The position numbers were made by a program, and so were the translations under genes. From Bacteroidota bacterium (GTDB lineage Bacteria; Bacteroidota; Bacteroidia; Bacteroidales; FEN-979), in NCBI GenBank assembly GCA_043810345.1, contig JBDROF010000022.1, positions 1,351 through 65,350 of the forward strand: 64,000 nucleotides of DNA, read 5' to 3'. Below, in pieces: positions 28,437 to 41,958 of this stretch; within the stretch, counting starts at the first letter, position 1; each line of letters starts with the position of its first letter. The notes under the pieces are model-generated. The model was given only the letters and a program-made list of their open reading frames with translations. It searched no databases and had not been told where the DNA came from.

Positions 28437-30362
28437 ATGAAAGGGAATCTGTTTGAAACCAACAAATCACTCTGCTACTTTGCTTTGCTGATCATTGTTT
28501 TCATTACTTTTTATCCTTTTTTCCTTAGCGGGTTCGGATGCGCCGATGACATTCAGAATTATCTTGTTCTCAAATCGGGGGGTACGTGGCCGAACATGAT
28601 CTGGCTGGCCAAATTCGCAGGAAGGTTTTACTACCTGATCGTTCACCCGGTATACATGGTTCCCTACCTGGCTGATTCCATGTTTGTAACCAAGCTGTTC
28701 CATCATATTCCCCTGATCATTGGAATCGTTCTGTTTGCTGTCATTCTCTTCAGGATGAACCGCTCCCGGGAACTTTCATTGTTCTACCTGCTGATCTTCC
28801 TTACCGTGGCACAGGCTTCAAAACATACCTCCCTGTTTTTAAACTATCCGTTTTTCTTTACCTTTTCCTTCGATCTGCTGTTGATTTCATTCCTTCTCCT
28901 TCTCAGTTATTTCGATACGTCCCGGAAGTACCATCTGGTTCTCTCCGTGATCCTGTTTGCCGTCGTGTTGCTGTTCAGTGAAATTTACCTTGTTTATCTG
29001 CTCATCTTCGCCATTACCATTGTGATCTATGTTGCCCAAAACGAATCCAGTGCTGTTGCACTGCTAAAACGTGCCGGTCTCATAATACTCCCTTTCCTCG
29101 GGGTGGCCGCACTGTACCTGGCTGCCTATTTCCTTTACCGGGTTTACTACCCCTCGCACTACATCGGCACCATGATTGATACAAAAAACGTTGACTTCCC
29201 CGGGTTTTTCAATGCTCTCTGGAACCTCTCCTATGCTTCATACCCTCTTACCATGTTCGAAGAAAATCGCCATCTCCTCAACATGAAATCCGAATTGATA
29301 GGGGGACATTCACCCGTTGTCCTGAATATCCTTCTGAACGCCAGGATCGAATGGATCATCAAAGGAATCTGTGTGGCCCTGACAGGATTTATCCTCCTTA
29401 CAGGGATTCACCGCATCAGTTACAAAACTCTTCTTGCCGGATCAGGCCTGGCCGTGTTGCTGATCTTCCTACCGCAGATTCCTCTGGCCATAACGGTGAA
29501 ATACATCTCCCATGTGGAGGGAGGGATGAAAGGGTACATCCCCGCATTTTTCTCAATGTTCGGAACGGTGCTGTTGCTCAGCCTCCTCCTCGGATACCTG
29601 GTCAGCTTATTGCATTTCAACCGCTTCGTCAAGATCAGCGTGATTTTCCTTTTTGCCTCCGGATTGTTTGTTCTCTCCGTCCTGACTGACCTCAACAATT
29701 ATACGGTTGCGAAAGATACGAGACGGGCTAACATCCGGTTCTACGCAATGGATGAACTGATGAAGACCCCGTCATTCCAGTCAATCCCTTCCCAGGCCAC
29801 GCTGTACACCCAGGAGCTGTACCGGCATACTTCTCAACAGTACGGCGGACTTACCGAACAGGGCTTCAACTGGGGGAAGTACATTACCGCCCGTACCGGG
29901 ATCACCTATCAGGTCTTCAGATATTTTAAGGATATCCCGGTTCCCCTTCCCGGTCAGGAAAAGCCCATCTATTCGATGGCAGCCCAACAGGCGGCAAAGA
30001 GTGATGAGTTGCTGCTGGTGCTTGCCAGGTTGCCACAAAAAACCACAGAGGAGGATCAGCCGGCGCAATTTGCCGACCAGGTATGGCTCCTCTACTATTC
30101 GGCATACAAGATCTTTTCAATCGGTTTCAACACGCGGGACGAATTTATTGATGTCGATACCCCCTTGTACGTGAACAACCGGTCCCTGATGGTCAGACCG
30201 GGAAGAAACATTGAGCTGACCATTAACAATCCACAGCTGACACAACCGGCCACCTTTTTCACCATCCAGACACCAGGCATTGATCTGAAAAGCATCCGGA
30301 TTTCCGATATCGTGGATATGGAATGTCCGGTATTTACCATCCGGCCTGACCAATTAAAGTAA
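28437..30362 (+). CDS. Multi-pass membrane protein, possible GT-C-fold glycosyltransferase
   Basis: ~11 hydrophobic segments; acidic 'DD' after TM1 followed by 'GRF'; soluble C-terminal domain; adjacent to a GT2. Confidence 0.6.
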   Translation: MKGNLFETNKSLCYFALLIIVFITFYPFFLSGFGCADDIQNYLVLKSGGTWPNMIWLAKFAGRFYYLIVHPVYMVPYLADSMFVTKLFHHIPLIIGIVLFAVILFRMNRSRELSLFYLLIFLTVAQASKHTSLFLNYPFFFTFSFDLLLISFLLLLSYFDTSRKYHLVLSVILFAVVLLFSEIYLVYLLIFAITIVIYVAQNESSAVALLKRAGLIILPFLGVAALYLAAYFLYRVYYPSHYIGTMIDTKNVDFPGFFNALWNLSYASYPLTMFEENRHLLNMKSELIGGHSPVVLNILLNARIEWIIKGICVALTGFILLTGIHRISYKTLLAGSGLAVLLIFLPQIPLAITVKYISHVEGGMKGYIPAFFSMFGTVLLLSLLLGYLVSLLHFNRFVKISVIFLFASGLFVLSVLTDLNNYTVAKDTRRANIRFYAMDELMKTPSFQSIPSQATLYTQELYRHTSQQYGGLTEQGFNWGKYITARTGITYQVFRYFKDIPVPLPGQEKPIYSMAAQQAAKSDELLLVLARLPQKTTEEDQPAQFADQVWLLYYSAYKIFSIGFNTRDEFIDVDTPLYVNNRSLMVRPGRNIELTINNPQLTQPATFFTIQTPGIDLKSIRISDIVDMECPVFTIRPDQLK

Positions 30363-30478
30363 TTGCTCCCAAACAGACCTAATGTCTTCTAACAATATAT
30401 TGTTATTTTTGAACAGGCAAGTGTTAATCATTTTGAAATCTCATTCAGCATCGGTATACAATCAATCCAAATCTTTAT

Positions 30479-31198
30479 ATGCATTTAAGTATAATCATTC
30501 CTTCATTTCATGGAGCAGATATTTTAAAGAGAAATATTCCAGGATTAATTAATTATTTTAAGGAAAAAAGTGTTCAATTTGAAATAATTATTGTTGATGA
30601 TGGTTCTAATGACAACGGATCAACGGAAAATATTGCCAATCAATTACAATGTAAATTCTTGAAACATGAAAAGAATTTAGGGAAGGGCGCTTCTGTAAGA
30701 AATGGCATACTTACGGCTGAAGGCGCTTTTAGAATATATACAGACGTCGACGTGCCATTTGAATATGTTGCATTTGAACGCTTTGTAAATTATTTAGAGG
30801 TGAAGGAATTTGACATGGTAATTGGAGACAGAACTTTGCCTGATTCAAAATATTTTGTTGATGTTTCGCGATTGCGATTTATATCAAGCAAAATATTTTC
30901 TTTTATTATTGGAAGATTTATTATTGGTGGTTATTTTGATTCGCAGTGTGGTATGAAAGGGTTCAGAGCAGCAGTTGCAAACGATTTATTTTCAGTCAGT
31001 AAGATTAATGGTTTTGCCTTTGATGTTGAATTGATATATATTGCCTTAAAAAGAAACTATGATATTAAACGATTACCAGTAGTTTTAAAATGTCAGGAGG
31101 GATCTAGTGTAAGAGTAATTCGACATGGTTTTAGAATGTTGATAGATCTTTTGATAATCATATGGAATCACAAAATGGGTTTTTATAAAAAATTGTAA
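30479..31198 (+). CDS. GT2 glycosyltransferase (polyprenol-phosphate glycosyltransferase-like), low GC
   Basis: 'LSIIIP', 'IIIVDDGSND', 'NLGKGASVRNG', 'DSQCGMKGF', 'GFAFDVEL'. Confidence 0.88.
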   Translation: MHLSIIIPSFHGADILKRNIPGLINYFKEKSVQFEIIIVDDGSNDNGSTENIANQLQCKFLKHEKNLGKGASVRNGILTAEGAFRIYTDVDVPFEYVAFERFVNYLEVKEFDMVIGDRTLPDSKYFVDVSRLRFISSKIFSFIIGRFIIGGYFDSQCGMKGFRAAVANDLFSVSKINGFAFDVELIYIALKRNYDIKRLPVVLKCQEGSSVRVIRHGFRMLIDLLIIIWNHKMGFYKKL

Positions 31199-31204
31199 TA
31201 ATAG

Positions 31205-31933
31205 ATGAATTCAAGGATGATTATTGATAGATTTCCGAAGAAAAGAATTCCATTGTCTGAAGAATATCAAAAGATTTATTATCAGCATTATCTTAATAGC
31301 AGGGAGGGTAGATCCAAAATAACTTCCTTAGTAAAAAAAATGGAATCATGGATGCACAAAAAAGTTGCAGAAGATGTTGTAAGTGAAAATAAAACAACTG
31401 CTACGCTTGAAATTGGTGCAGGCACCCTTAACCATTTAAAATATGAACCTTTACAAAATAAATATGACATCGTTGAACCTTTTGATGAATTATACAAACA
31501 TAGTCCGTTGGTTAATAGGATTGACAACATTTACAAAGATATAAATGATATACAGGGGATTCAATACGATAGAATAATTAGCATAGCTACATTTGAGCAT
31601 GTAATTGATTTACCCAGACTAGTTGCTAAAGCGGGAAGTTTGCTTGACAAGAAATGTGGGAAGTTAAGAGTTGCTATTCCGAATGAAGGTACAGTATTAT
31701 GGAACATTGGGACAAAATTAACTGGGATTTCCTTCAGGAAAAGTTATGGATTGAATTATCAAACCTTTATGCAATATGAACATCTAAACTCAGCAGATGA
31801 AATAGAGCAGGTACTGGCTTTTTTTTTCGTAACATTAAAATATTCTATTTTTGGAATTAATAAGCAATGGGCGTTTTATCGGTTTTATGAATGTTCAAAC
31901 GTAATTGAGGAAAACGTACTTCAATTCTTGTGA
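31205..31933 (+). CDS. Class I SAM-dependent methyltransferase, low GC
   Basis: 'LEIGAG' motif I, 'YDRIISIATFEHV', 'VAIPNEG'. Confidence 0.75.
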   Translation: MNSRMIIDRFPKKRIPLSEEYQKIYYQHYLNSREGRSKITSLVKKMESWMHKKVAEDVVSENKTTATLEIGAGTLNHLKYEPLQNKYDIVEPFDELYKHSPLVNRIDNIYKDINDIQGIQYDRIISIATFEHVIDLPRLVAKAGSLLDKKCGKLRVAIPNEGTVLWNIGTKLTGISFRKSYGLNYQTFMQYEHLNSADEIEQVLAFFFVTLKYSIFGINKQWAFYRFYECSNVIEENVLQFL

Positions 31934-31950
31934 AACAAAATGACACATAT

Positions 31951-32490
31951 TTACATTTGGCCTTCCCGCAGCTTTTCCCGGCACTGGTGGCAAAGACTGG
32001 AACTTTTTTGATCAATATCTTCGACATATGTGCTGGACCGCATTACGCAGGTTGGAACATGGCAGTGGATCAATCCAAACGTATGACCAAGTTCGTGGAT
32101 TACCTCTTTCTTGAACCGATCCCTCATCATCTCCTCATCCTTTTTCATTCCATACCGTTCATTGCTAAACCGGTACCACGATGCAATCCCCGTACGACCC
32201 TCCAGGTATGCCTGCCCGAAAATGTAGGTCAGAATAGGGATAAAGAGATCCACACTGAATAATCCGATGGTTTTTAACGAGTCGGAAGAGAACTTCGTAT
32301 CCACCTCTTTCAATAAATTATTGCCATTGTATTGTCGTCGGGCAAAATCATGAAAGTCACTCAAATCAAGATGCCCCTCTTTGATCTTCACCGGCAGAAG
32401 AAATTCACGTGAAACATTCTCTGCTATCATCTTCAGAAAATCCTTTTCGAAGTACCCAAAAGAAATCAATGTGATATGTTGCAGATTCAT
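31951..32490 (-). CDS. Archaemetzincin (M54) zinc metalloprotease
   Basis: 'HELGHTFGLIHC...CVM' and C-terminal 'LCHQC'; ATG 32490 avoids overlap with the upstream regulator. Confidence 0.9.
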   Translation of the reverse strand: MNLQHITLISFGYFEKDFLKMIAENVSREFLLPVKIKEGHLDLSDFHDFARRQYNGNNLLKEVDTKFSSDSLKTIGLFSVDLFIPILTYIFGQAYLEGRTGIASWYRFSNERYGMKKDEEMMRDRFKKEVIHELGHTFGLIHCHVPTCVMRSSTYVEDIDQKSSSLCHQCREKLREGQM

Positions 32491-32507: not shown

Positions 32508-33848
32508 TTAATCTGCACGTTCTAATCCGTATTTTTTGATTTTCTTGTAAAGGGTCACCCGGTCCACTTTTAACGCTTTTGCTGAGCGTGATATATTCCA
32601 ACGGTACTTCGTAAGGATTTGCTGAATATGGATTTTTTCATGATCATCAAGACTTTCCACGGAGTTGTCGATCACGGTTTTACCCAGCGGAAGATCTTTC
32701 AGGCGGATCTCCTTTCCGTTGCCAATCACAATAGCACGTTCAATCATATTTTCCAATTCACGAACATTTCCGGGGAAATCAAACTCTTCCAACCGTCTCA
32801 AAGCTGCGGAGTCGATGGGAATGGGAGGTTTGTTCATGGAAGTACAGTATTTTTTAATGAAATAGTCCACGAGCAGGGGGATGTCCTCTGTTCGTTCCCG
32901 CAAGGGTGGAATATGAAGATTCACCACGTTCAGCCGGTAATAGAGGTCCTCCCGGAAGGTTCCTTTTTCCACCATGCTTTTCAAATCCCGGTTGGTGGCA
33001 CAGATGACCCTGAAATCAGATCTGATTTCCTTATTTCCGCCTACTCGTACAAAACTTTTTGACTCCAGAACCCGCAGTAGTTCTATCTGCATTTTAGGGG
33101 AAATGGTGGCAATTTCATCCAGGAAGATCGTACCCCCATCCGCCATTTCAAACCTCCCTTTACGATTATACATGGCTCCGGTAAAAGCTCCCTTTTCGTG
33201 CCCAAAAAGTTCACTCTCCAGTAAGCTTTCCGTCAACGCACCACAATGTACACTCACAAGGGGAAAGAATTTGCGCTGAGAATTGGAATGGATCGCTTTG
33301 GCAATCAGCTCTTTCCCCGTACCACTCTCTCCTGTAATAATCACCGAGGAATCCGACTGGGCTACGTGTTCAACCTGTTTAAGTACGTTCATCATCGGTT
33401 TACTGTTTCCAATCAGGTCCTCCACATTCTCCAATGAAATAACCTTCTCTTTCAGGGCTTCATTCTCCTCGGCCAGCTGGATCTGCTTGGAAGCATTCCT
33501 GATCAGATGCGACAAATCGTCGGGATCAAACGGTTTTGTTACATAATCAAATGCCCCGTCTTTTAAGGCCTGGACAGCCGTATCCACCGTGGCAAATGCG
33601 GTCATGACAATCACAATAGAATCATGTTTCAGGGATTTTATTCTCCGGAGCATCTCCAATCCGTCCATGCCAGGCATTTTAATATCTGCCAGAATGATGT
33701 CGTAATAATCGGATTCCAGTATGGACAATGCTTTTTTTGCACTTTCTGCACATTCGACGCGATAACCGTCTTCAATGAACCAGTTGTACAACGAATCTCT
33801 TACGGACTCTTCATCGTCAACAACTAATAATGAGATTTTTTTTGCCAT
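32508..33848 (-). CDS. Sigma54-dependent response regulator (receiver, AAA+, Fis HTH)
   Basis: 'VVDDE', 'DIKMPGMDG', 'GESGTGKE', 'GAFTGA', 'FLDEI', 'PGNVREL', C-terminal HTH. Confidence 0.95.
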   Translation of the reverse strand: MAKKISLLVVDDEESVRDSLYNWFIEDGYRVECAESAKKALSILESDYYDIILADIKMPGMDGLEMLRRIKSLKHDSIVIVMTAFATVDTAVQALKDGAFDYVTKPFDPDDLSHLIRNASKQIQLAEENEALKEKVISLENVEDLIGNSKPMMNVLKQVEHVAQSDSSVIITGESGTGKELIAKAIHSNSQRKFFPLVSVHCGALTESLLESELFGHEKGAFTGAMYNRKGRFEMADGGTIFLDEIATISPKMQIELLRVLESKSFVRVGGNKEIRSDFRVICATNRDLKSMVEKGTFREDLYYRLNVVNLHIPPLRERTEDIPLLVDYFIKKYCTSMNKPPIPIDSAALRRLEEFDFPGNVRELENMIERAIVIGNGKEIRLKDLPLGKTVIDNSVESLDDHEKIHIQQILTKYRWNISRSAKALKVDRVTLYKKIKKYGLERAD

Positions 33849-33850
33849 AT

Positions 33851-35518
33851 TCAGTCTCCTTTATTCCTTATTACTGGTAACGTGATGGATATGGTGGTTC
33901 CCTTTCCAGGTTCTGATTTCACTTCAACTTTCCCTTTATGACTCTGCACAATACCATGAACAATAGCCAGGCCCAGGCCAATTCCCCTGGCCCCCTGTTT
34001 TGTCGAAAAGAACGGCTCAAAAATATGCGGGATGTCTTCCGGGGAAATACCTGATCCGTTATCAGTAATTTCCAGATTGATGTGCTCATCATCAGGGTTA
34101 TTCGTGGTGATCGTGATTTCCCCGTTTTCCGATACCGCTTCGTAAGCGTTCACGAGGATGGCAACACAAGCCTGTTTGATCTGGTTTGGACAGCAATAGA
34201 TCTCCTCTCTTTTCGCAACGAAATCCTTTAAAAAACTGGCGTTAGCAATGACGATCGGGTGGGACATCAGATCATAGGTTTCATGTAATATTTCATGCAG
34301 ATGGCATACTTCGAAATCATCCTGATCTTTTCTTGAAAAATCCAGTAATCCCTTTACAATATCTCCACATCGCTTTGTTTCAACTTCAATCAGTTTCAAA
34401 TGTTTCAGGATCGTCGCCTTTTTATTGGCGTCCCATTTATCGTTCATTACCTGTTTATGTACGAGTTTAGTATAAATCAAAATGCCTGACAGGGGATTAT
34501 TGATCTCATGCGCCACCGATAGGGATAATTTTCCAAGGGAAGCTATTTTCTCAATTTGTATCAATTCCGCCTGGGCTTTTCCCAGCTCTTCAGACTTTTT
34601 CTGGACTTTATATTCCAGCTGTTGCGACCAGTTGTGCAACTCTTTTGTAGCCGATTGCAGTTTGTCAAGCATATTGTTAAATGCATAGGAAACCATCTTC
34701 AGATCGTCCAGTTGATTGGATTGGACATCCAACCGTTTACTGGTATCCCCGTTTGCCACAGCTTCACTGGCTTCAATGATGGCAGTTAATGGTTTCTTGA
34801 TTTTTTTTCTCGTAAAGATGATGATGATCAATAAAAGTAAAAGTGTGGACAGGGTTGCCAAGATGTAAGACTTTTCAAGTCCCGCATCAAGTTCTTCCAA
34901 CGGGATTTTGATCACAAAATAACCAAGCACATCATCACTTGGCTTATGTGCATGACAGGAACTTTGATAGCAGGATGGTTCATTTAAGATAGGAGCCCTG
35001 ATCAAAAGATGTCTGCAGTTGTCCTTTTTCTTATTCATCTTGCATTCACTATCGATATCCACGATTCTGATCCCCTTCTCTGTTCTGGGAAACAGTACAT
35101 TTATATTCGAATGGCAATCTTTGCAATTCGGATTGTTGTGATCCGCATAATCGTCTGAGAAGGATGAATAAACGAGGTTATCCTCTTCATCATACATATT
35201 CACATCCTTGATCCCAGGCATCTTATTGATGATGTTCAACATATTTTGCAATGCCATTTTATCGTTTTCGAGCATGGATTGATAAAGTGCTCCTTCCACG
35301 AGAAGACCTACATTATTACCGCTCCTCTGAATGACACTTTTCATATATTCCTCGTTGATCGACTTGAAGATGATCCCGAACGATATAAACAGAAAAAGAG
35401 CCAGTACCGTAATGATATAAACAACCTGACCATAAATCGATGACCGGAATTTATGAATTCTCGAAGTCAATGAATTTGTCCGGTCAGGTTTACGGATTGT
35501 ACGATTGAACCAAGTCAT
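33851..35518 (-). CDS. HAMP sensor histidine kinase with periplasmic heme-binding motifs (paralog 2)
   Basis: Two TMs; CKDCH and CYQSSCH; H-box 'VAHEINNPL'; 'DNGSGI', 'GIGLGL'. Confidence 0.92.
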
Positions 35519-37200
35519 TATTCTTTTCTTTCATTCAATATCAACGGGAGGGTAATCGAAACAGCGGTACCTTTCCCCAGTTCTGATTTCACTTCAATAT
35601 GCCCGTCGTGGCTTTTCACGATGCCGTGCACAATGGCCAACCCCAAACCAATGCCACTTCCGCCTTGCTTGGTGGAAAAGAAGGGTTCCAATATATGCGG
35701 GATGTCTTCCGGGGCAACGCCTAACCCGTTATCAATGATCTCCAGTTTTACATATTTGTCGTTCGGATTAGAGGTTCTTAAAATAATCTCTCCGTTTTCC
35801 AACACAGCTTCAGAGGCATTGACAAGAATGGCCACACACGCCTGTTTGATCTGGTTCGCGCTGCAGTTAATCAAATCCGTCATGGCATCCAATTCCTTGA
35901 TAAAATGAATGTTGGCAATTTTAATAGGATGTGCCATTAAATCATAGGTTTCCTGCAAAATCTCATGAAGGTGCCTGGAGTGGAAATCATTTTGATCTGT
36001 TCTTGAAAAATCCAATAAGCCTTTGACGATATCTCCACACCGTTTTGTTTCCGTTTCAATGAGTTTCAAATGTTTAAGAATAGACTCCTTTTTGGTGGTT
36101 TCCAGATCCAGGTTGTTTAGTTGTTTATAGGCCAGCTTTGAGTAAGTCAGGATTCCCGAAAGAGGATTGTTGATCTCATGGGCAACGGATAAGGATAACC
36201 TTCCGAGAGATGCTATCCGCTCAATTTGTATCAGTTCATTTTGAGCTTCCCCTAATTCTTCTGTCTTTTTCTGCACTTTGTATTCAAGCTGCTGGGACCA
36301 GTTTTGTAATTCAACCGTAGCTGCTTGCAGGTTGTCAAGCATGTCGTTAAACGCATGAGAAACCATTCGCATATCGTCCAGTTCATTGTCCCTTATTTTC
36401 AACCTGGTACTCTTGTCTCCTTTGGTGACAGCTTCACTGGCTTTGATAATGGCGGTCAAAGGTTTTTTAATATTTTTTCTGGTAAAGAGGATTAAAAAGG
36501 ATACCAGCACCAGGGTCATCAATATGGCTAGCAGGAGAAAATCCCTCAATGATTTGCTCAGAGCAGCATCCAGGTTTTCCAGTGGGATTCTGATGACGAG
36601 TGATCCGAGTACGTCATCACCAGCTTGATGAGCATGACACGAACTCTCGTAGCAGGATTTTTGATTCAGAATTGGTGATCTGATCAGCAGATGCCTGCAA
36701 CTGGTGTCTCGCTGACTCATCTTACATTCGCTATCGATGTCGATGATTCGATACGATTTCTCTGTTCTGGGAAACATCTTCGCCAGATCCGCATGACAAT
36801 GGGTACAATTCGGATTGTTGTGACCGATTTCGTCATCAGAAAAGGAGGAGTAAACAAGGTTGTTCTCTTCATCATACATATTCACATCATCGATACCTGG
36901 CATGGTATTGATGATATCCATGGTGCTCCGCAGTGCCTCTTTGTCATTCTCAAGCATAGAGCGATACAACGCTCCTTCAACCAGGAGGCCGATATTGGTT
37001 CCACTCTGACGAACCACACTTCTCATGTACTCCTCGTTAACCGATCTGAAGATGATCCAAAACGCTACAAACAAAAAGACGGACAAGATCGTAATGACAT
37101 AGATCACGCGACTGTATACAGACGAACGGAACCTCATGTACTTAATCAGGATTGAGATCCATGGCCTGTTTCTACGTAATATATTCTTAAACGATGCCAT
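35518..37200 (-). CDS. HAMP sensor histidine kinase with periplasmic heme-binding motifs (paralog 1)
   Basis: Two TMs; CTHCH and CYESSCH; 'VAHEINNPL'; stop overlaps next start (TAATG). Confidence 0.92.
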   Translation of the reverse strand: MASFKNILRRNRPWISILIKYMRFRSSVYSRVIYVITILSVFLFVAFWIIFRSVNEEYMRSVVRQSGTNIGLLVEGALYRSMLENDKEALRSTMDIINTMPGIDDVNMYDEENNLVYSSFSDDEIGHNNPNCTHCHADLAKMFPRTEKSYRIIDIDSECKMSQRDTSCRHLLIRSPILNQKSCYESSCHAHQAGDDVLGSLVIRIPLENLDAALSKSLRDFLLLAILMTLVLVSFLILFTRKNIKKPLTAIIKASEAVTKGDKSTRLKIRDNELDDMRMVSHAFNDMLDNLQAATVELQNWSQQLEYKVQKKTEELGEAQNELIQIERIASLGRLSLSVAHEINNPLSGILTYSKLAYKQLNNLDLETTKKESILKHLKLIETETKRCGDIVKGLLDFSRTDQNDFHSRHLHEILQETYDLMAHPIKIANIHFIKELDAMTDLINCSANQIKQACVAILVNASEAVLENGEIILRTSNPNDKYVKLEIIDNGLGVAPEDIPHILEPFFSTKQGGSGIGLGLAIVHGIVKSHDGHIEVKSELGKGTAVSITLPLILNERKE

Positions 37201-37290: not shown

Positions 37291-38010
37291 TCAAGAAGTA
37301 TGATCCAGAAAATCTTTCTGGAACTCCTCCCATATCTCAATGGGCAGATGCGAAAGGGTGTTGTCCCGGAGTTCACCTCCATCCTGCAATGCCACCAAGG
37401 CAGGTTCGGATGAATGCTTTTTCATCGACACAGCAAGAAAATCCTTAAACCTTTCCAATTCTTTCAGCGACCAGTTTGTAGCCTTCTCTGCCAGGTAATA
37501 GGAGTTTGTTTCGGCTACCCAGTTTGAGGGTTGTATTTTATAAATCCACCCTTCCTTAAAAGGATCCTCATTCAGGAGTTCAGGACTTTCGCTAAGTTCT
37601 GAGTTCGCATCCAGGATCGTTCCTGAAATGGGTGAGAATACCCTGAGATGCTTACCATCCTGTTGAATCTCCGTCAGCAATTCTCCTTTCCTGATGATTT
37701 CGCCCGGGGATTTAAGGTTACTGAACCGGACCTCACCCGTTATATGCTGCAGGAGGTCATCCATTCCCACCCTGGCAGCTCCCGACACTTCCAGATGCGT
37801 CCAGGTATGGTTTTTACTGAAAAACAGTCCCTGGGGTATTCTTAACACATTGGCTGTAAGATTCCCGATCGCTTGTTGAATCTGTTTGCCAAGCTTAATC
37901 TGTTTGGTTGACAGTTGCCAGAAAACGATCAGGATTACCAGGTAACCGATGACAAACAGGTACTCTAAACCTTTTGTATCGAAAATATCTATTCTACTGA
38001 AGCCTTCCAT
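37291..38010 (-). CDS. Membrane-anchored GcvH-like protein lacking the canonical lipoyl-Lys
   Basis: N-terminal TM; 'FSKNHTW', 'ARVGMDD', 'SPISGTI', 'LLNEDPFKEGWIYKI' H-protein fold motifs; QQDGK in place of ESVKA. Confidence 0.85.
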   Translation of the reverse strand: MEGFSRIDIFDTKGLEYLFVIGYLVILIVFWQLSTKQIKLGKQIQQAIGNLTANVLRIPQGLFFSKNHTWTHLEVSGAARVGMDDLLQHITGEVRFSNLKSPGEIIRKGELLTEIQQDGKHLRVFSPISGTILDANSELSESPELLNEDPFKEGWIYKIQPSNWVAETNSYYLAEKATNWSLKELERFKDFLAVSMKKHSSEPALVALQDGGELRDNTLSHLPIEIWEEFQKDFLDHTS

Positions 38011-39254
38011 GTTTTACTCCTTTCTTCTTGTTGAATGGTTGATTTATTTTGCTTTTTTCCGCTCACCCACCCGGGTGATTCCCGATACACCGGCATTCTT
38101 CTGACGATCCAGCGAAACACCAGAATCTGCAGAAAGATGACGGCCATACTCACGACAATCTCCTTCCAGGTGGGATAATGGAATGTTTTGTCGTACCATT
38201 GATAAGCGATCATCGAAATATTCAGGCGGTTCAATATAATTCCTATGATAGTCATGATCGCAGCTGTCCGGATCAACAGTATGTTCCGACGGTTGTAACC
38301 AAACATAAAGATGATGCAGGGAACCACCACTAAACCAACAACCTCCACAAGGTACCATGCCCCCCATGAAGTGTTGAGATAGACGCTATTTTTGCCATGT
38401 ATGAAAACCAATACAGTCATAAATAGATAGACAAACATGGTCACGCCACATACCCTGGCTAAACTCATCAGGATACTCCTGTGGGAACTTTTGAACTCAA
38501 ATGCCATGTCGTGTTTGAACACCCGCTGGTTGATCGTCTCCATGATGATCACCAGGGAAAGACCGGCGAAGATGCTGGAAATGAAGAACAGGATCGGGAT
38601 AAACTCCGAGTACCACAAGGGGTGGATCTTTGGCTTTGCCATTAAAAAAAGTGCTCCGAGTCCGGATTGATGTAACGTGGAAAGTGCGATTCCAAATATC
38701 ACTACGGCTAGTGTCAGAGAAAGAAAAAATTTCCGCTGCCGTTTCAGGGAAGCCCACTCCGTGATCGTAGGGCAGAACTCTATGAATAGCGAGATCATAT
38801 AAAGAATAAAATGCCAGGCCACCAGGAATAGGACAGAACTGATCCCAAACGAGTTGCCAATGATCGGATTGATCACCTTCCAGGGACGTCCAAGGTCCAG
38901 TAACAGTGCGCCGGCGTAAAAGATATAGGCCAGGAGGGCGTAGAGCACCGTAGCCCTTACAATCGGTCGGTACTTCTCCATCCCTACAATGTATACCATG
39001 AATGTTACCACAAAGGCTCCTCCGGCAAACGCCACACCGGTGATGACATTGAAATTGATCCACAGCCCCCACGGCATCTCCTGGGAGGCATGAATCACGG
39101 AACCCAGGCCATCTTTGAAACGGATAAAGAGTATCCATGCCGCTACAAGAATGGTGATTCCGGCAATGACATTGAACGGGGTGATGATCTTCCCCTTTGG
39201 TTTCAATTCATGCATCATGAATTTAAAAAACCCTGTGTGTTGTTCGTTGCTCAT
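37989..39254 (-). CDS. NrfD/PsrC-family membrane subunit (HybB/HmcC-like)
   Basis: ~10 TMs; 'PWGLWI', 'DLGRPW', 'LSTLHQSGLG', 'HPLWYS', 'LNRLN', 'YPTWKE'. Confidence 0.9.
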   Translation of the reverse strand: MSNEQHTGFFKFMMHELKPKGKIITPFNVIAGITILVAAWILFIRFKDGLGSVIHASQEMPWGLWINFNVITGVAFAGGAFVVTFMVYIVGMEKYRPIVRATVLYALLAYIFYAGALLLDLGRPWKVINPIIGNSFGISSVLFLVAWHFILYMISLFIEFCPTITEWASLKRQRKFFLSLTLAVVIFGIALSTLHQSGLGALFLMAKPKIHPLWYSEFIPILFFISSIFAGLSLVIIMETINQRVFKHDMAFEFKSSHRSILMSLARVCGVTMFVYLFMTVLVFIHGKNSVYLNTSWGAWYLVEVVGLVVVPCIIFMFGYNRRNILLIRTAAIMTIIGIILNRLNISMIAYQWYDKTFHYPTWKEIVVSMAVIFLQILVFRWIVRRMPVYRESPGWVSGKKQNKSTIQQEERSKTWKASVE

Positions 39255-40126
39255 GATTGCTCCTCCTTCTCTTTCTGAATTCGTTTTTTTCGCTCAAAAA
39301 ATGAATTGTTCAGGCCGAGCAAAAACGCCGGCCACAGAATCAGAACGGCAGGAACCGAATAGAGGAATGTCTTGTTATATTCAGGATATGCCTTGGTTCC
39401 AAGATCTTTCCTGAGTCCCAGTTCCTCAAAGGGTACGGAGGCAATATATAGCAAGCTTGTTCCGCCCACTTCATGCTCTCCGTAAATGGCATGATTGTAT
39501 TTCTCCGGTTCAGCGTAGATCCGGGTCCTGGCGATCTCGATCAGGTCTCTTCTCTTGCCGAACAGGAGCGCTTCCGGCGGACAAACATCCACACAGGCAG
39601 GTTTCTGACCTTCCAGAAGAAGCTCATAGCACATCCGGCATTTTTGGATCTTCGGATTCGGGTTGTTGTATTCAAATTTTGGCATATCAAACGGACAGGA
39701 GATCATGCAGGACCGGCAGCCCATGCATTTATCTTCCCGCCAGATAACCGGACCTTCATCCGTCTTTAGCATAGCTTTGGTAAGGCAGGCGGATGCACAG
39801 GCAGGTTCATTGCAATGATTGCACGATGTCCGGATAAACTGCTCTCCCTTGGAGGTGTTGTAACAATTCATCACGACACGACGTGTATCATTCGTTTTGT
39901 TAATGACTCCCGGTTCCGTTGCTTCCGTAGGAAATGGTAATTCATACTGTTCAGCACAGGCAAATTCGCAACTTTGACAGCCTATGCAAAGCGTCGAATC
40001 ATATAAGATTCCGCTGAATTCAGTATCACTCTTGTCGTCCAGTGAAGCACCAAAGCTCTTGCCCACCGTCAGAGTGACCCCTGCGAGTCCCAGGGTTTTT
40101 AAAAAGCCTCGTCGATCAATACCCAT
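39251..40126 (-). CDS. Tat-exported 4x[4Fe-4S] protein with C-terminal anchor (HybA/HmcB-like)
   Basis: 'RRGFLK'; CIGCQSCEFAC, CNHCNEPACASAC, CMGCRSCMISCP, KCRMC...PACVDVCP; 'YGEHEVGGT'; C-terminal TM. Confidence 0.92.
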   Translation of the reverse strand: MGIDRRGFLKTLGLAGVTLTVGKSFGASLDDKSDTEFSGILYDSTLCIGCQSCEFACAEQYELPFPTEATEPGVINKTNDTRRVVMNCYNTSKGEQFIRTSCNHCNEPACASACLTKAMLKTDEGPVIWREDKCMGCRSCMISCPFDMPKFEYNNPNPKIQKCRMCYELLLEGQKPACVDVCPPEALLFGKRRDLIEIARTRIYAEPEKYNHAIYGEHEVGGTSLLYIASVPFEELGLRKDLGTKAYPEYNKTFLYSVPAVLILWPAFLLGLNNSFFERKKRIQKEKEEQS

Positions 40127-40172
40127 AATATCAGATTTTAGTTATTGATGAAAACATTAGTTTTAATTGTTT

Positions 40173-41912
40173 TTATTGAGATGTGTTAATAAACGTTGTC
40201 TGGAAATCTTCCCATACTTCGGGGCCCAGATCAGCCAGAACACCCTCCTTTACTACTCCGCCATCCTGCATGATCACATGTGCGTAATCAACCTGATCGC
40301 CCTTCATTGAAACAGCAAGAAAATCCTTGAGCCTGGAAAATTCCTTTCTTAACCACTCTTTAGACTTTTCCCCCATGAATAAAAACCGGATCTCTCTTAC
40401 CCAGTTTGTGGGTTCAATCATGTATACCCAGCCGTCTGAATAGGGAGCCGAGTTCATCATGGATGCATCTGTGTTCAGGAGTTTGTTTTGAGCCTTGATG
40501 GTTCCCGAAATCGGGGCATGAATGGTCAATTGCTTTCCGTTTTGGATGATGGAAAGAAGTTGATCTCCTTTTTTTACCTTCTCCCCCGGACTCTTCATCT
40601 TTACGCGGTTAAGGGGGCCGGTGACGTGCTGAAGGAAATCATCTATCCCTATTCTGACAACACCGTTTTTCTCCATAAACGCCCACATATGCGATTTGTC
40701 AAAATAGAGCCCATTTGGTACCGCTACCGTATTTTCATCAAACACAGCCGGTGCAAGGGATTTGGTATCCATCACGACAGCTTTTTTTTGTCGTTTGTGA
40801 CGGATAACAGCATCTCCGATCATATAGGCCAGTACAAATGGTATCAATATGATCACAATGAGGGAAAAGAGGGACAAATCATGTAATTTGTTGGCGAAGA
40901 ATCCAGTATTGGTCAACATCCCTATCTGCGTTGGATTACTCGTTAACATGGCTATTTTTTTTGCATGTCTTTCACTGTTTGAAAGTTCGGCATAGCTATC
41001 CGGAATCAGGAATTCCTGTCCCTCAACGAGCACCCATTTCAGGAATGCCACTTCTGCTTGGCTGGCAGGCTTTACTGAAGAGACTGAATAAATTGGTCTA
41101 CTTAAGGTTCTGGGATATTTTCCAATCCATAGACCCCTGGCAAAGTCGTTTAGATTCCCGTAGATATTTTCAAAAGAATCAAGCGTCCCATTTCTGTTTT
41201 TGTCGATGGGCATCAACATGATATTTTTTACCAGAGATTGATTTTCAGGGTTAACAACATCCTCCATTCTACAAAATCCGATTCCGTACGGGTCGTTCTG
41301 AATAGCCAGGACCATCGCTTCCATACCCCCTGTGTTAATCCCATTTATAAGTGTTGGATCTGAGTTCAGGAATTGAGCCGCCTGTGACTGAATGATTACA
41401 TCGTTGGTTTGATAAAAATGGACAGGTGCGGCCTGATTGTCGCCCAGAATGGTTCCCCATGTCTGTTTCTCCGGATGTTTGAACAGGAGAGCAAGTTCAT
41501 CTGATGAGATGCCCTGCTTTTTAATGTTCTTTAGAAATGGATTTTTTGAATTGATCACCGGAACGATGAGGTCTGTTCCAACAACCATCTTCCACAGGTC
41601 GTTGTCCTCGAGTACCTTCATGTATTCAGTTGATACAAATGATAAACACTTCCCCGCTTTTAAATCAGATGCTTCGGGGGTGCCTGTCAGAAGAACCACC
41701 TCTATACCGACTTCCGGATTCAATTTGCTGTACTCTTTCGCCCACGTTTTTGTGATCGAATACAGATCCGGAGAAGATTGGATCCGTATCAAGTGCTCCA
41801 TGGTTGAGTTGCTTTCCGATACCTTTTTGTCACTGCTGCTATCGCTACCAAACGATTGTTCGCCGCCATAAAGCAGGAGTAACCCGATGAATAAAAAGAT
41901 CATGTTTTTCAT
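40173..41912 (-). CDS. Fusion: PstS-like periplasmic binding domain, TM, GcvH-like domain
   Basis: Signal peptide from MKNMIF; 'WAKEYSKLNPEV', 'DPYGIGF', 'GKYPRTLSRPIY'; TM; 'YFDKSHMWA', 'RIGIDDF', 'APISG', 'PYSDGWVY'. Confidence 0.82.
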   Translation of the reverse strand: MKNMIFLFIGLLLLYGGEQSFGSDSSSDKKVSESNSTMEHLIRIQSSPDLYSITKTWAKEYSKLNPEVGIEVVLLTGTPEASDLKAGKCLSFVSTEYMKVLEDNDLWKMVVGTDLIVPVINSKNPFLKNIKKQGISSDELALLFKHPEKQTWGTILGDNQAAPVHFYQTNDVIIQSQAAQFLNSDPTLINGINTGGMEAMVLAIQNDPYGIGFCRMEDVVNPENQSLVKNIMLMPIDKNRNGTLDSFENIYGNLNDFARGLWIGKYPRTLSRPIYSVSSVKPASQAEVAFLKWVLVEGQEFLIPDSYAELSNSERHAKKIAMLTSNPTQIGMLTNTGFFANKLHDLSLFSLIVIILIPFVLAYMIGDAVIRHKRQKKAVVMDTKSLAPAVFDENTVAVPNGLYFDKSHMWAFMEKNGVVRIGIDDFLQHVTGPLNRVKMKSPGEKVKKGDQLLSIIQNGKQLTIHAPISGTIKAQNKLLNTDASMMNSAPYSDGWVYMIEPTNWVREIRFLFMGEKSKEWLRKEFSRLKDFLAVSMKGDQVDYAHVIMQDGGVVKEGVLADLGPEVWEDFQTTFINTSQ

Positions 41913-41942
41913 AGCTGTATAATTAAGACCAATATGCAATAC

Positions 41943-41958
41943 TCAAATCCTGTGCCAA
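41943..41958 (-). promoter_or_regulatory. Putative sigma54 (-24/-12) promoter
   Basis: Minus strand TTGGCACAGGATTTGA (GG-N10-GA variant) about 30 bp upstream of ATG 41912; operon encodes a sigma54 activator. Confidence 0.65.

Follow-up and report, generated by a model that had tools for sequence, protein, structure and literature searches.

Results

Gene content of the locus

We analysed a stretch of 64,000 nucleotides (the window, in whose numbering all positions below are given unless a locus or contig is named) from a Bacteroidota bacterium of the order Bacteroidales, FEN-979 (assembly GCA_043810345.1, contig JBDROF010000022.1). Two of its genes encode proteins that resemble GcvH, the glycine cleavage system's H protein, and this pair brackets an HmcB/HybA-like and an HmcC/HybB-like gene. 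Both proteins keep the H-protein fold and have glycine at the position of the lipoyl-lysine, and we lean, though not strongly, to the view that they form a non-lipoylated cytoplasmic adaptor or signalling pair on a sigma-54-controlled NrfD-type quinone module with heme-c kinases.

The genes stand in a compact row on the minus strand, in the order long GcvH-like, HmcB-like, HmcC-like, short GcvH-like, two kinases, regulator and peptidase. Domains of the encoded proteins were assigned by Pfam and NCBIfam profile scans; the promoter element and the membrane helix of the long paralogue were read from the sequence. The features are as follows.

41942..41957, minus strand: sigma-54-type -24/-12 element TGGCAC-N5-TTGAG, located 45 nt upstream of the first gene's ATG
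40173..41912, minus strand: gene of the long paralogue (signal peptide, PstS-like periplasmic domain, membrane helix, predicted cytoplasmic lipoyl-less GcvH-like domain, tail)
40920..41798, minus strand: PstS-like type II binding-protein domain (residues 48-340 of the long paralogue; AlphaFold2 (AF2) model with a predicted local distance difference test score (pLDDT) of 88; Foldseek)
41169..41210, minus strand: EF-hand-like loop PIDKNRNGTLDSFE in the binding domain (conservation in 35 sequences)
40803..40871, minus strand: membrane helix of the long paralogue, followed by the basic stretch RHKRQKK
40323..40727, minus strand: GcvH fold of the long paralogue, residues 405-539, with the hairpin N467-G468-K469 at 40533-40541
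40176..40322, minus strand: family-specific tail of the long paralogue, residues 540-588, with QDGG at 40257-40268
39251..40126, minus strand: HmcB/HybA-like four-cluster iron-sulfur protein (twin-arginine signal DRRGFLK, C-terminal membrane anchor; Pfam Fer4_11)
37989..39254, minus strand: HmcC/HybB-like integral membrane protein of the NrfD family (NCBIfam, Pfam NrfD)
37291..38010, minus strand: gene of the short paralogue, 239 residues (conserved 14-residue N-terminus, membrane helix, predicted cytoplasmic lipoyl-less GcvH-like domain, tail)
37912-37968, minus strand: membrane helix of the short paralogue, with a run of basic residues after it
37441..37845, minus strand: GcvH fold of the short paralogue, residues 56-190, with the hairpin D118-G119-K120 at 37651-37659
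37294..37440, minus strand: family-specific tail of the short paralogue, residues 191-239, with QDGG at 37375-37386
35518..37200, minus strand: sensor histidine kinase 1 (periplasmic domain with heme-c motifs, then HAMP, HisKA and HATPase)
33851..35518, minus strand: sensor histidine kinase 2 (paralogous to kinase 1, whose two heme-c motifs it shares)
32508..33848, minus strand: NtrC-type sigma-54-dependent response regulator (REC, AAA+ with GAFTGA, HTH_8)
31951..~32484 (start approximate), minus strand: archaemetzincin-like zinc peptidase (Peptidase_M54, Pfam E 5.7e-23), the last gene of the cluster

H-protein fold without the lipoyl-lysine

Both proteins matched the Pfam family GCV_H (E 1.5e-22 for the short and 4.6e-21 for the long one). 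In ungapped phmmer alignments to 1onl, 3a8i, 3a7a and 2ka7, G119 of the short protein lies opposite the lipoyl-lysine and is followed by K120 at +1; G468 and K469 take these places in the long protein. The original prediction had placed Gly at the lipoyl-lysine position and Lys one residue later in both proteins, and its quoted peptides are present in the translations and agree with these alignments. In the AF2 model of the short protein (pLDDT 82.2; predicted template modelling score, pTM, 0.71), strands 111-117 and 120-125 are linked by the two-residue turn D118-G119, and the +1 Lys directly flanks the hairpin tip. Foldseek aligned the model to H proteins with TMt 0.74-0.90, the closest being 1onl, 3ab9 and 1htp (0.87-0.90), and a VIA comparison with the pea H protein 1dxm_A gave Z 18.0 and a root mean square deviation (rmsd) of 1.6 over 131 residues, corresponding to model residues 56-190. 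In this structure-based comparison the H-protein fold is kept, including its C-terminal helix.

The short and long proteins align to each other without a gap over 218 residues, from the membrane helix through the C-terminus, at 39% identity (E 2e-58), and by this alignment they are paralogues, not proteins alike by chance.

We considered whether they are simply misannotated true GcvH proteins. The host genome has three GCV_H matches, of which the two cluster genes score 81.9 and 79 bits, and the third, on contig C124, is a canonical gcvH of 126 residues that scores 148.9 bits and has Lys in the lipoyl column. Against the NCBIfam models the two cluster proteins score 73.7 and 57.8 bits with TIGR00527 (cut-off 115.85), 80.4 and 71.3 with NF002270 (117), 37.2 and 39.3 with NF045810 (GcvH-related, Desulfovibrio type; 150), and 45.1 and 36 with TIGR03077 'not_gcvH' (144.05). 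We rejected misannotation because the scores stay below these cut-offs and a separate canonical gcvH exists elsewhere in the genome. No gcvT or gcvP homologues recur in the flanks of related loci, and the whole genome was not searched for them. A decayed relic of gcvH was rejected as well, on the grounds of purifying conservation across 346 homologues and strict operon linkage.

Conservation of the family and the base at +1

The homologues counted here (231 short, 115 long) are database proteins fetched by the family and tail searches. In the short homologues the lipoyl column holds G in 205, D in 11, S in 5, E in 4, N in 3, and K, A and Y in 1 each; in the long ones it holds G in 114 and N in 1, with no K at all. 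Within 40 related loci, G occupies the column in 34/41 short and 35/35 long sequences. The +1 residue is K in 214/231 short and 114/115 long homologues and R in 10/231 and 1/115, respectively. Among 10 aligned membrane-anchored relatives from variant clusters, six have R at this position, three have K and one has N. Because Lys and Arg interchange there in relatives, acylation of the +1 Lys is unlikely. We suggest from these alignments that the GcvH-like pair are not lipoate carriers and that the +1 residue is a conserved base. In the E2 lipoyl domain, a Lys displaced by one position escapes lipoylation, and in the Bacillus stearothermophilus E2 domain a Lys added at -1 or +1 was not lipoylated, as described in section 4.2 of PMC6270654. 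Clustering of the flanking open reading frames (ORFs) found no ligase gene recurrent in the flanks of related loci; two genes of the BPL/LplA/LipB family lie on other contigs of the host genome. The original prediction had left two alternatives, non-lipoylated or differently modified. The first agrees with the family-wide Gly and the alternation of Lys and Arg at +1, and the second finds no support, given this exchange and the lack of a recurrent ligase gene nearby.

Of 2051 candidates in a word-indexed search, 1821 proteins matched at E <= 0.001; the 120 matches listed have 225-262 residues and are named 'glycine cleavage system protein H' or hypothetical. An exhaustive search of representatives at 50% identity gave 312 clusters at E <= 1e-30. 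Among the 150 clusters listed, most have about 232-248 or about 527-594 residues, and the rest are shorter or intermediate in length and probably represent fragments. The family profile matches 58/401 genomes in an even sample of the phylum (E <= 1e-25); the seven further genomes from the window's own order in that sample gave no match.

The tail has about 49 residues with the pattern QDGG...W..FQ and is missing from canonical GcvH. The original prediction had started it slightly too early. Its absence from true GcvH holds for residues of about 191-239 and 540-588, and does not hold for the helix just before 'RFKDFLAV', which is the canonical C-terminal helix, because the pea H protein aligns to model residues 56-190. 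G211, G212 and W227 of the tail are invariant in 229/229 short and 115/115 long homologues. A search with the tail only found 339 proteins, and all 120 among the matches listed also carry PF01597. Searching the ESM Atlas with only the tail yielded scores of 0.81-0.84, inside the range reached by shuffled sequences, and a wide VIA-align search listed no match covering residues 191-239, a part which that search barely tests.

Predicted heterodimer

A complex of short-protein residues 50-239 with long-protein residues 397-588 was modelled. The ipSAE of this heterodimer is 0.78 (0.79, 0.78 and 0.77 in the runs), compared to 0.00 for the best control, with 43-44 confident contacts, a partner pLDDT >= 89 and at least 97% of contacts shared between runs. 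The interface comprises residues 59-62, 72-78, 151, 164-165, 168-169 and 173-174 of the short protein and 408-411, 421-426, 500, 510, 513-514, 517-518 and 522-523 of the long one. It thus uses equivalent residues on both chains, namely the PxGL strand, the next strand, and the surroundings of 151 and 164-174 in the short numbering. According to this model, the two GcvH-like domains most likely pair as a pseudo-symmetric heterodimer, and the earlier suggestion of a heterodimer gains from a predicted complex that passes its controls. The hairpin and the QDGG tail lie outside the predicted interface, and therefore both would be free for another partner.

Membrane topology and periplasmic parts

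Because a signal peptide precedes the binding domain and a basic stretch follows each membrane helix, the positive-inside rule would place the GcvH-like domains of both proteins in the cytoplasm. The best Foldseek matches of the binding domain are the phosphate-binding proteins 4jwo, 4gd5, 4pqj and 1twy. The PstS structures match with E 2.8e-15 to 1e-10, TM of about 0.5-0.70 and 13-20% identity, and these PstS-type structural matches identify a type II binding-protein fold. Sequence methods gave less: PBP_like_2 matched at E 1.5e-4 with 22 bits, below the Pfam cut-off of 27, TIGR02136 scored 25.4 bits against 206.6, and phmmer found marginal matches among the sequences of the Protein Data Bank (PDB; E 0.017-0.022). 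The most conserved element of the domain is the EF-hand-like loop, which keeps P197, D199, N201, N203 and E210 in all of 35 sequences and G204 and D207 in nearly all. The loop fits the EF-hand pattern DxNxNGxxDxxE, which points to a possible Ca2+ site or a sensor dependent on Ca2+. Oxyanion-site motifs of the canonical PstS kind are not evident in the domain.

The 14-residue N-terminus of the short protein (37969-38010, minus strand) is also conserved, with M1, F10, G14, E16 and Y17 invariant in 60 sequences, which suggests a specific contact on the periplasmic side. In one relative whose short protein is 82% identical (L005:5072-5833), the gene before HmcB matches only residues 335-588 of the long protein, and no match to the binding domain was found there despite an upstream flank of 5 kb.

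HmcBC-like module and heme-c kinases

The iron-sulfur protein scores 308.5 bits with the HmcB model (cut-off 420) and 211.3 with HybA (263), and the membrane protein scores 362.4 with HmcC (550) and 221.7 with HybB (450), all below the cut-offs. The latter protein matches Pfam NrfD (PF03916) at E 4.3e-13 and belongs to the NrfD family. Using an alignment with E. coli HybB, we checked 25 HybB residues, the list of quinone-site and proton-path residues being that of PMC8076601. D109, Y77, R89, Y99, Y141, E148, E155, H184, S186, K198, E291 and R329 are kept in 38/38 family sequences and S129 and H200 in 37/38. S105, E133 and S190 are replaced in the HmcC-like family, which retains most of the quinone-site and proton-path residues.

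Similar modules are the Hmc/Nhc complexes found in sulfate reducers and, in E. coli hydrogenase 2, HybA-HybB. They likewise combine a periplasmic four-cluster ferredoxin with an NrfD-type membrane subunit, which has 10 helices in the homology models of PMC8076601. However, the window cluster has no HmcA, HmcD, HmcE or HmcF, no cytochrome or HdrD-like gene, and no hydrogenase subunit genes. The partners of the module here are instead the GcvH-like proteins and the heme-c kinases.

In the minus-strand kinase genes, the heme-c motifs are CXXCH at 36793-36807 and CX4CH (C....CHAH) at 36634-36654 for kinase 1, and CXXCH at 35111-35125 and CX4CH at 34952-34972 for kinase 2. This pair of motifs is kept in the periplasmic domains of the kinases of all three cluster types examined (see below), and both kinases are probably di-heme redox sensors. 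The host genome carries cytochrome c assembly genes.

Promoter and start codon

The regulator has a REC domain, a sigma-54 AAA+ domain with GAFTGA and an HTH domain, and a -24/-12 element lies upstream of the target, as in an NtrC-type two-component system. Because of this element and the GAFTGA loop of the regulator, the gene row looks like a sigma-54-dependent, self-regulated unit. TGGYAY-N5-TTG occurs within 210 nt of the first gene's start in 30/34 related loci, compared to 12 matches in 1.04 Mb on both strands of the remainder of the same loci (0.0024 per 210 nt). The -12 box of these elements is TTGA or TTGG, not TTGC. A scan of the window with the strict sigma-54 pattern TGGYAY-N5-TTGCW, allowing one mismatch, gave 8 matches with 5.7 expected, which is no enrichment, and it missed the operon's own element because the -12 box of the latter is TTGA.

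The long protein has 579 residues when read from ATG 41912 and 588 from TTG 41939, the start given in the ORF list. The ATG is most likely the true start, because the last base of the promoter-like element, 41942, is three bases away from the TTG.

Outside the window, TGGCAC-N5-TTG also lies upstream of HtpG-, Lon- and DnaK-like N-termini (contig positions C6:20042, C18:12975 and C34:37509). A sigma-54-type or look-alike promoter may be present at heat-shock genes of the host organism.

Related loci and sister clusters

A locus scan with one genome per species gave 43 loci, of which 40 belong to the window's clade, mostly metagenome-assembled genomes that carry the label Bacteroidales, Prolixibacteraceae or Draconibacterium. 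Of the 40, 33 have the complete set of seven core genes. Two GcvH-like genes are found in 37, the three exceptions ending at contig ends. The M54 peptidase is present in 34 and two kinase genes in 4. Clustering of the flanking ORFs revealed no other recurrent gene family beyond the peptidase, the next most frequent one occurring in 4 loci.

We also read eight regions from other classes of the phylum, which we label by locus numbers where they have to be told apart. Three arrangements were distinguished, and their GcvH-like genes come in pairs or triples. Type A is that of the window. Type B (L044, L048, L049, L052, L053 and part of L051) has membrane-anchored GcvH-like proteins, one or two in number, along with an HmcB-like protein, HmcC and a further GcvH-like protein that is soluble. 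These are followed by a kinase, a sigma-54 regulator and an M54 peptidase; in L053 and L044 the latter three are missing or fall past the contig end. The HmcB-like proteins of type B have no twin-arginine signal, and those of L044, L048, L051, L052 and L053 start at the first ferredoxin motif and keep the C-terminal anchor. Either the type B module faces the cytoplasm or its HmcB-like protein is exported by hitch-hiking.

Five of the soluble GcvH-like proteins carry an N-terminal 4-Cys motif (CX11-12CX6CX2C), which is not found in that of L048:

L044:10664-11503, 4-Cys GcvH-like protein
L049:8575-9387, 4-Cys GcvH-like protein
L052:6496-7239, 4-Cys GcvH-like protein
L053:12523-13323, 4-Cys GcvH-like protein
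L047:11349-12236, 4-Cys GcvH-like protein

The motif reads C(I/V)WM.AG....(K/Q)LC......C..C, has no Pfam match, and may be a metal or iron-sulfur site. A protein of L051 (L051:5555-6274) carries it as well, without a GCV_H match.

Type C (L050 and parts of L051 and L054) contains a twin-arginine HmcB together with HmcC, a cytochrome of the multiheme c3/c7 type and a kinase from the same family. Two further proteins have a receiver domain (REC) joined to a GcvH-like domain, and one of these two carries part of the tail. The M54 peptidase is absent after these REC-GcvH-like genes. Among 25 variant proteins, Lys occupies the lipoyl column in only one.

A separate REC-GcvH-like family (L045 and L046; Ignavibacteria, Zixibacteria) has 119 members at E <= 1e-5, made up of the L045 representative (L045:7539-8324) and 118 database relatives. 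Both domains are found in 117/119, Asp occupies the lipoyl column in 116/119, and a Lys within two residues of it is found in only 2/119. These regulators have the same lipoyl-less domain and in type C stand beside HmcB, HmcC and the same kinase family. They differ in being soluble, with the receiver domain in place of the membrane anchor and the binding-protein domain; most lack the QDGG tail, and they are annotated only as 'response regulator'.

Discussion

A receiver domain hands a phosphorylation signal on to the domain to which it is fused. Because the lipoyl-less GcvH-like domain is found behind receiver domains beside the same redox and kinase genes, we regard it as a signalling output or adaptor domain, and this argument is stronger than any that could be drawn from the window alone. 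The interaction or signalling role proposed originally is thus borne out by receiver fusions of homologous lipoyl-less domains both in the sister clusters and in the REC-GcvH-like family.

We propose that the PstS-like periplasmic domain of the long paralogue would bind a ligand, that the signal would cross the membrane to the GcvH-like dimer at the inner face, and that the dimer would then act on the cytoplasmic face of the NrfD-type subunit. In the sister clusters, phosphorylation would do the same job through the GcvH-like domains fused to receiver domains. In this scheme, the topology, the partner that is contacted and the signalling direction are inferred. As the target, we favour the cytoplasmic face of the NrfD-type subunit over the kinase, a choice that the data do not decide.

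Several points weigh against this scheme. A look among the sequencing runs turned up no RNA data. The +1 Lys is near-invariant in the long homologues, which is stronger than a merely basic requirement predicts. The calibration of the dimer score (116/157 solved complexes and 2/215 mismatched pairs at the mark of the heterodimer) holds only roughly for our model, for which own alignments were used. Homodimers are equally possible in such a model, because the interface is symmetric. The iron-sulfur protein, with its twin-arginine signal, lies across the membrane from the GcvH-like domains, and direct contact of these domains with its clusters is therefore ruled out. Finally, the REC-GcvH-like proteins of L045 and L046 (Ignavibacteriaceae) have no HmcBC genes nearby, and therefore the domain is not tied to HmcBC everywhere.

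The first alternative, which we consider rather unlikely, is that the GcvH-like dimer docks on the sensor kinases and tunes their balance of kinase and phosphatase activity, by analogy with the inner lipoyl domain L2 of E2. This domain docks on pyruvate dehydrogenase kinase (PDK), a relative of histidine kinases. It would be no more probable that, as part of the same arrangement, the binding domain serves as a co-sensor in the manner of TorT for TorS or LuxP for LuxQ. A kinase of the same family with CXXCH and CX4CH stands beside the GcvH-like genes in all three cluster types, the REC-GcvH-like genes of L045 and L046 adjoin a kinase where HmcBC is lacking, and the lipoyl-domain/kinase complexes 3crk (Z 5.7) and 1y8n (Z 5.5) are weak structural neighbours of the short-protein model. 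However, a receiver normally acts downstream of its kinase, so that feedback on the kinase is the less direct reading. The lipoyl group itself contributes to the binding of L2 to PDK and is absent in the GcvH-like domains, and L053 has GcvH-like genes with HmcB and HmcC and no kinase gene nearby.

It is also possible, but we think improbable, that the two GcvH-like proteins are structural subunits that assemble or stabilise the HmcBC-like complex without any signal, the binding-protein fold being a periplasmic scaffold. The strict co-occurrence and gene order with HmcB and HmcC, the high conservation of the probably periplasmic N-terminus of the short protein, and the apparent lack of canonical PstS oxyanion-site motifs in the binding domain would all fit such subunits. 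However, receiver-domain fusions of the homologous domain are hard to square with a passive scaffold, and the tail motif and the hairpin base are conserved outside the predicted interface, suggesting a further specific partner.

The weakest alternative, that the +1 Lys carries lipoate or another acyl group through an unrecognised ligase and makes the domain, like LbpA, a swinging-arm carrier for the redox module on its cytoplasmic side, would accommodate the near-invariance of this Lys in the window's clade, its place beside the hairpin tip and the two BPL/LplA/LipB-family genes elsewhere in the genome, but it is very improbable in view of Arg in its stead in some short homologues and most of the membrane-anchored relatives, the Asp column of the REC-fused relatives with hardly any Lys near it, the lack of a recurrent ligase gene in the neighbourhood, the one-position-shifted Lys of the E2 lipoyl domain that was not lipoylated (section 4.2 of PMC6270654), and a cluster without a cytoplasmic redox partner.

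Starting again from the adaptor or signalling pair on the NrfD-type module, we tentatively offer a more specific proposal, about which we are doubtful: the cofactor-less GcvH fold would be a dedicated output or adaptor domain that controls a respiratory-type NrfD quinone module post-translationally. Input might come, with the same doubt, through a fused periplasmic ligand-binding domain in Bacteroidales or a receiver in the Ignavibacteria-type clusters. The domain might gate the cytoplasmic proton half-channel of the HmcC-like protein or its quinone chemistry, and the heme-c kinases might read a periplasmic redox state set by the same module; we hold both of these as tentatively as the proposal itself. 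If true, this would be a new output class of response regulators and the first direct two-component control of an energy-converting membrane complex.

Among known proteins, GcvH shares with the pair the fold over about 131 residues including the C-terminal helix, about 25-32% identity in the solved H proteins, and the structural motifs H.W, PxSG and GW. The GcvH-like pair differs in having Gly for the lipoyl-lysine, a membrane anchor and a 49-residue tail, and in being encoded with HmcBC-like and two-component genes, not with gcvT or gcvP. GcvH-L of the SirTM/macrodomain operon (Streptococcus, Staphylococcus; PDB 5a35) is likewise a GcvH-fold paralogue outside glycine cleavage and matches the short-protein model with a Foldseek E of 6.2e-7 and Z 11.8. 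According to passages in PMC4518038 and PMC12440151, it is lipoylated and ADP-ribosylated. In contrast, the window pair is without lipoyl-lysine, and no sirtuin, macrodomain or ligase gene recurs nearby. LbpA is a GcvH-like protein that serves the sHdr sulfur-oxidation redox complex and not glycine cleavage, as stated in part of PMC6067878. It resembles our pair in being dedicated to a redox complex, but it needs the lipoyl-lysine and dedicated ligases, whereas the window family has no such lysine and no ligase in its cluster; the Pfam and NCBIfam scans of the window neighbours found no Hdr-like proteins. The E2 L2-PDK complex, in which a lipoyl-type barrel-sandwich domain docks on a kinase of the histidine-kinase/GHKL lineage, offers an analogy of mechanism only, and L2 is lipoylated while the GcvH-like domains are not.

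In the full-text literature, in which subscription journals are thinly covered and supplements excluded, we found no description of a GcvH-like protein that is lipoyl-less, membrane-anchored or fused to REC, nor of a GcvH-like partner of NrfD modules; the latter has no mention in the sections of the NrfD review concerned (PMC8076601). The components of the locus are all of known kinds. What is new is the predicted use of a cofactor-less H-protein fold as a paired adaptor, and the fixed association of the GcvH-like pair with an HmcBC-like module and heme-c kinases. The public name 'glycine cleavage system protein H' is wrong for this family of at least 312 clusters at 50% identity. If our reading is true, a cofactor-less H-protein fold, linked to receiver domains in a related family, is a signalling domain that has so far gone unstudied. 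It would also give a handle on the sensing and regulation of NrfD-type quinone modules, which are widespread in anaerobic respiration, and a specific case, open to testing, in which a carrier protein has been put to new use as an interaction module.

As for the last gene of the cluster, one possibility is that the M54 peptidase cleaves the tethered GcvH-like proteins. At window positions 30001-32000, the G+C content falls to 0.35, compared to 0.41-0.53 elsewhere in the window.

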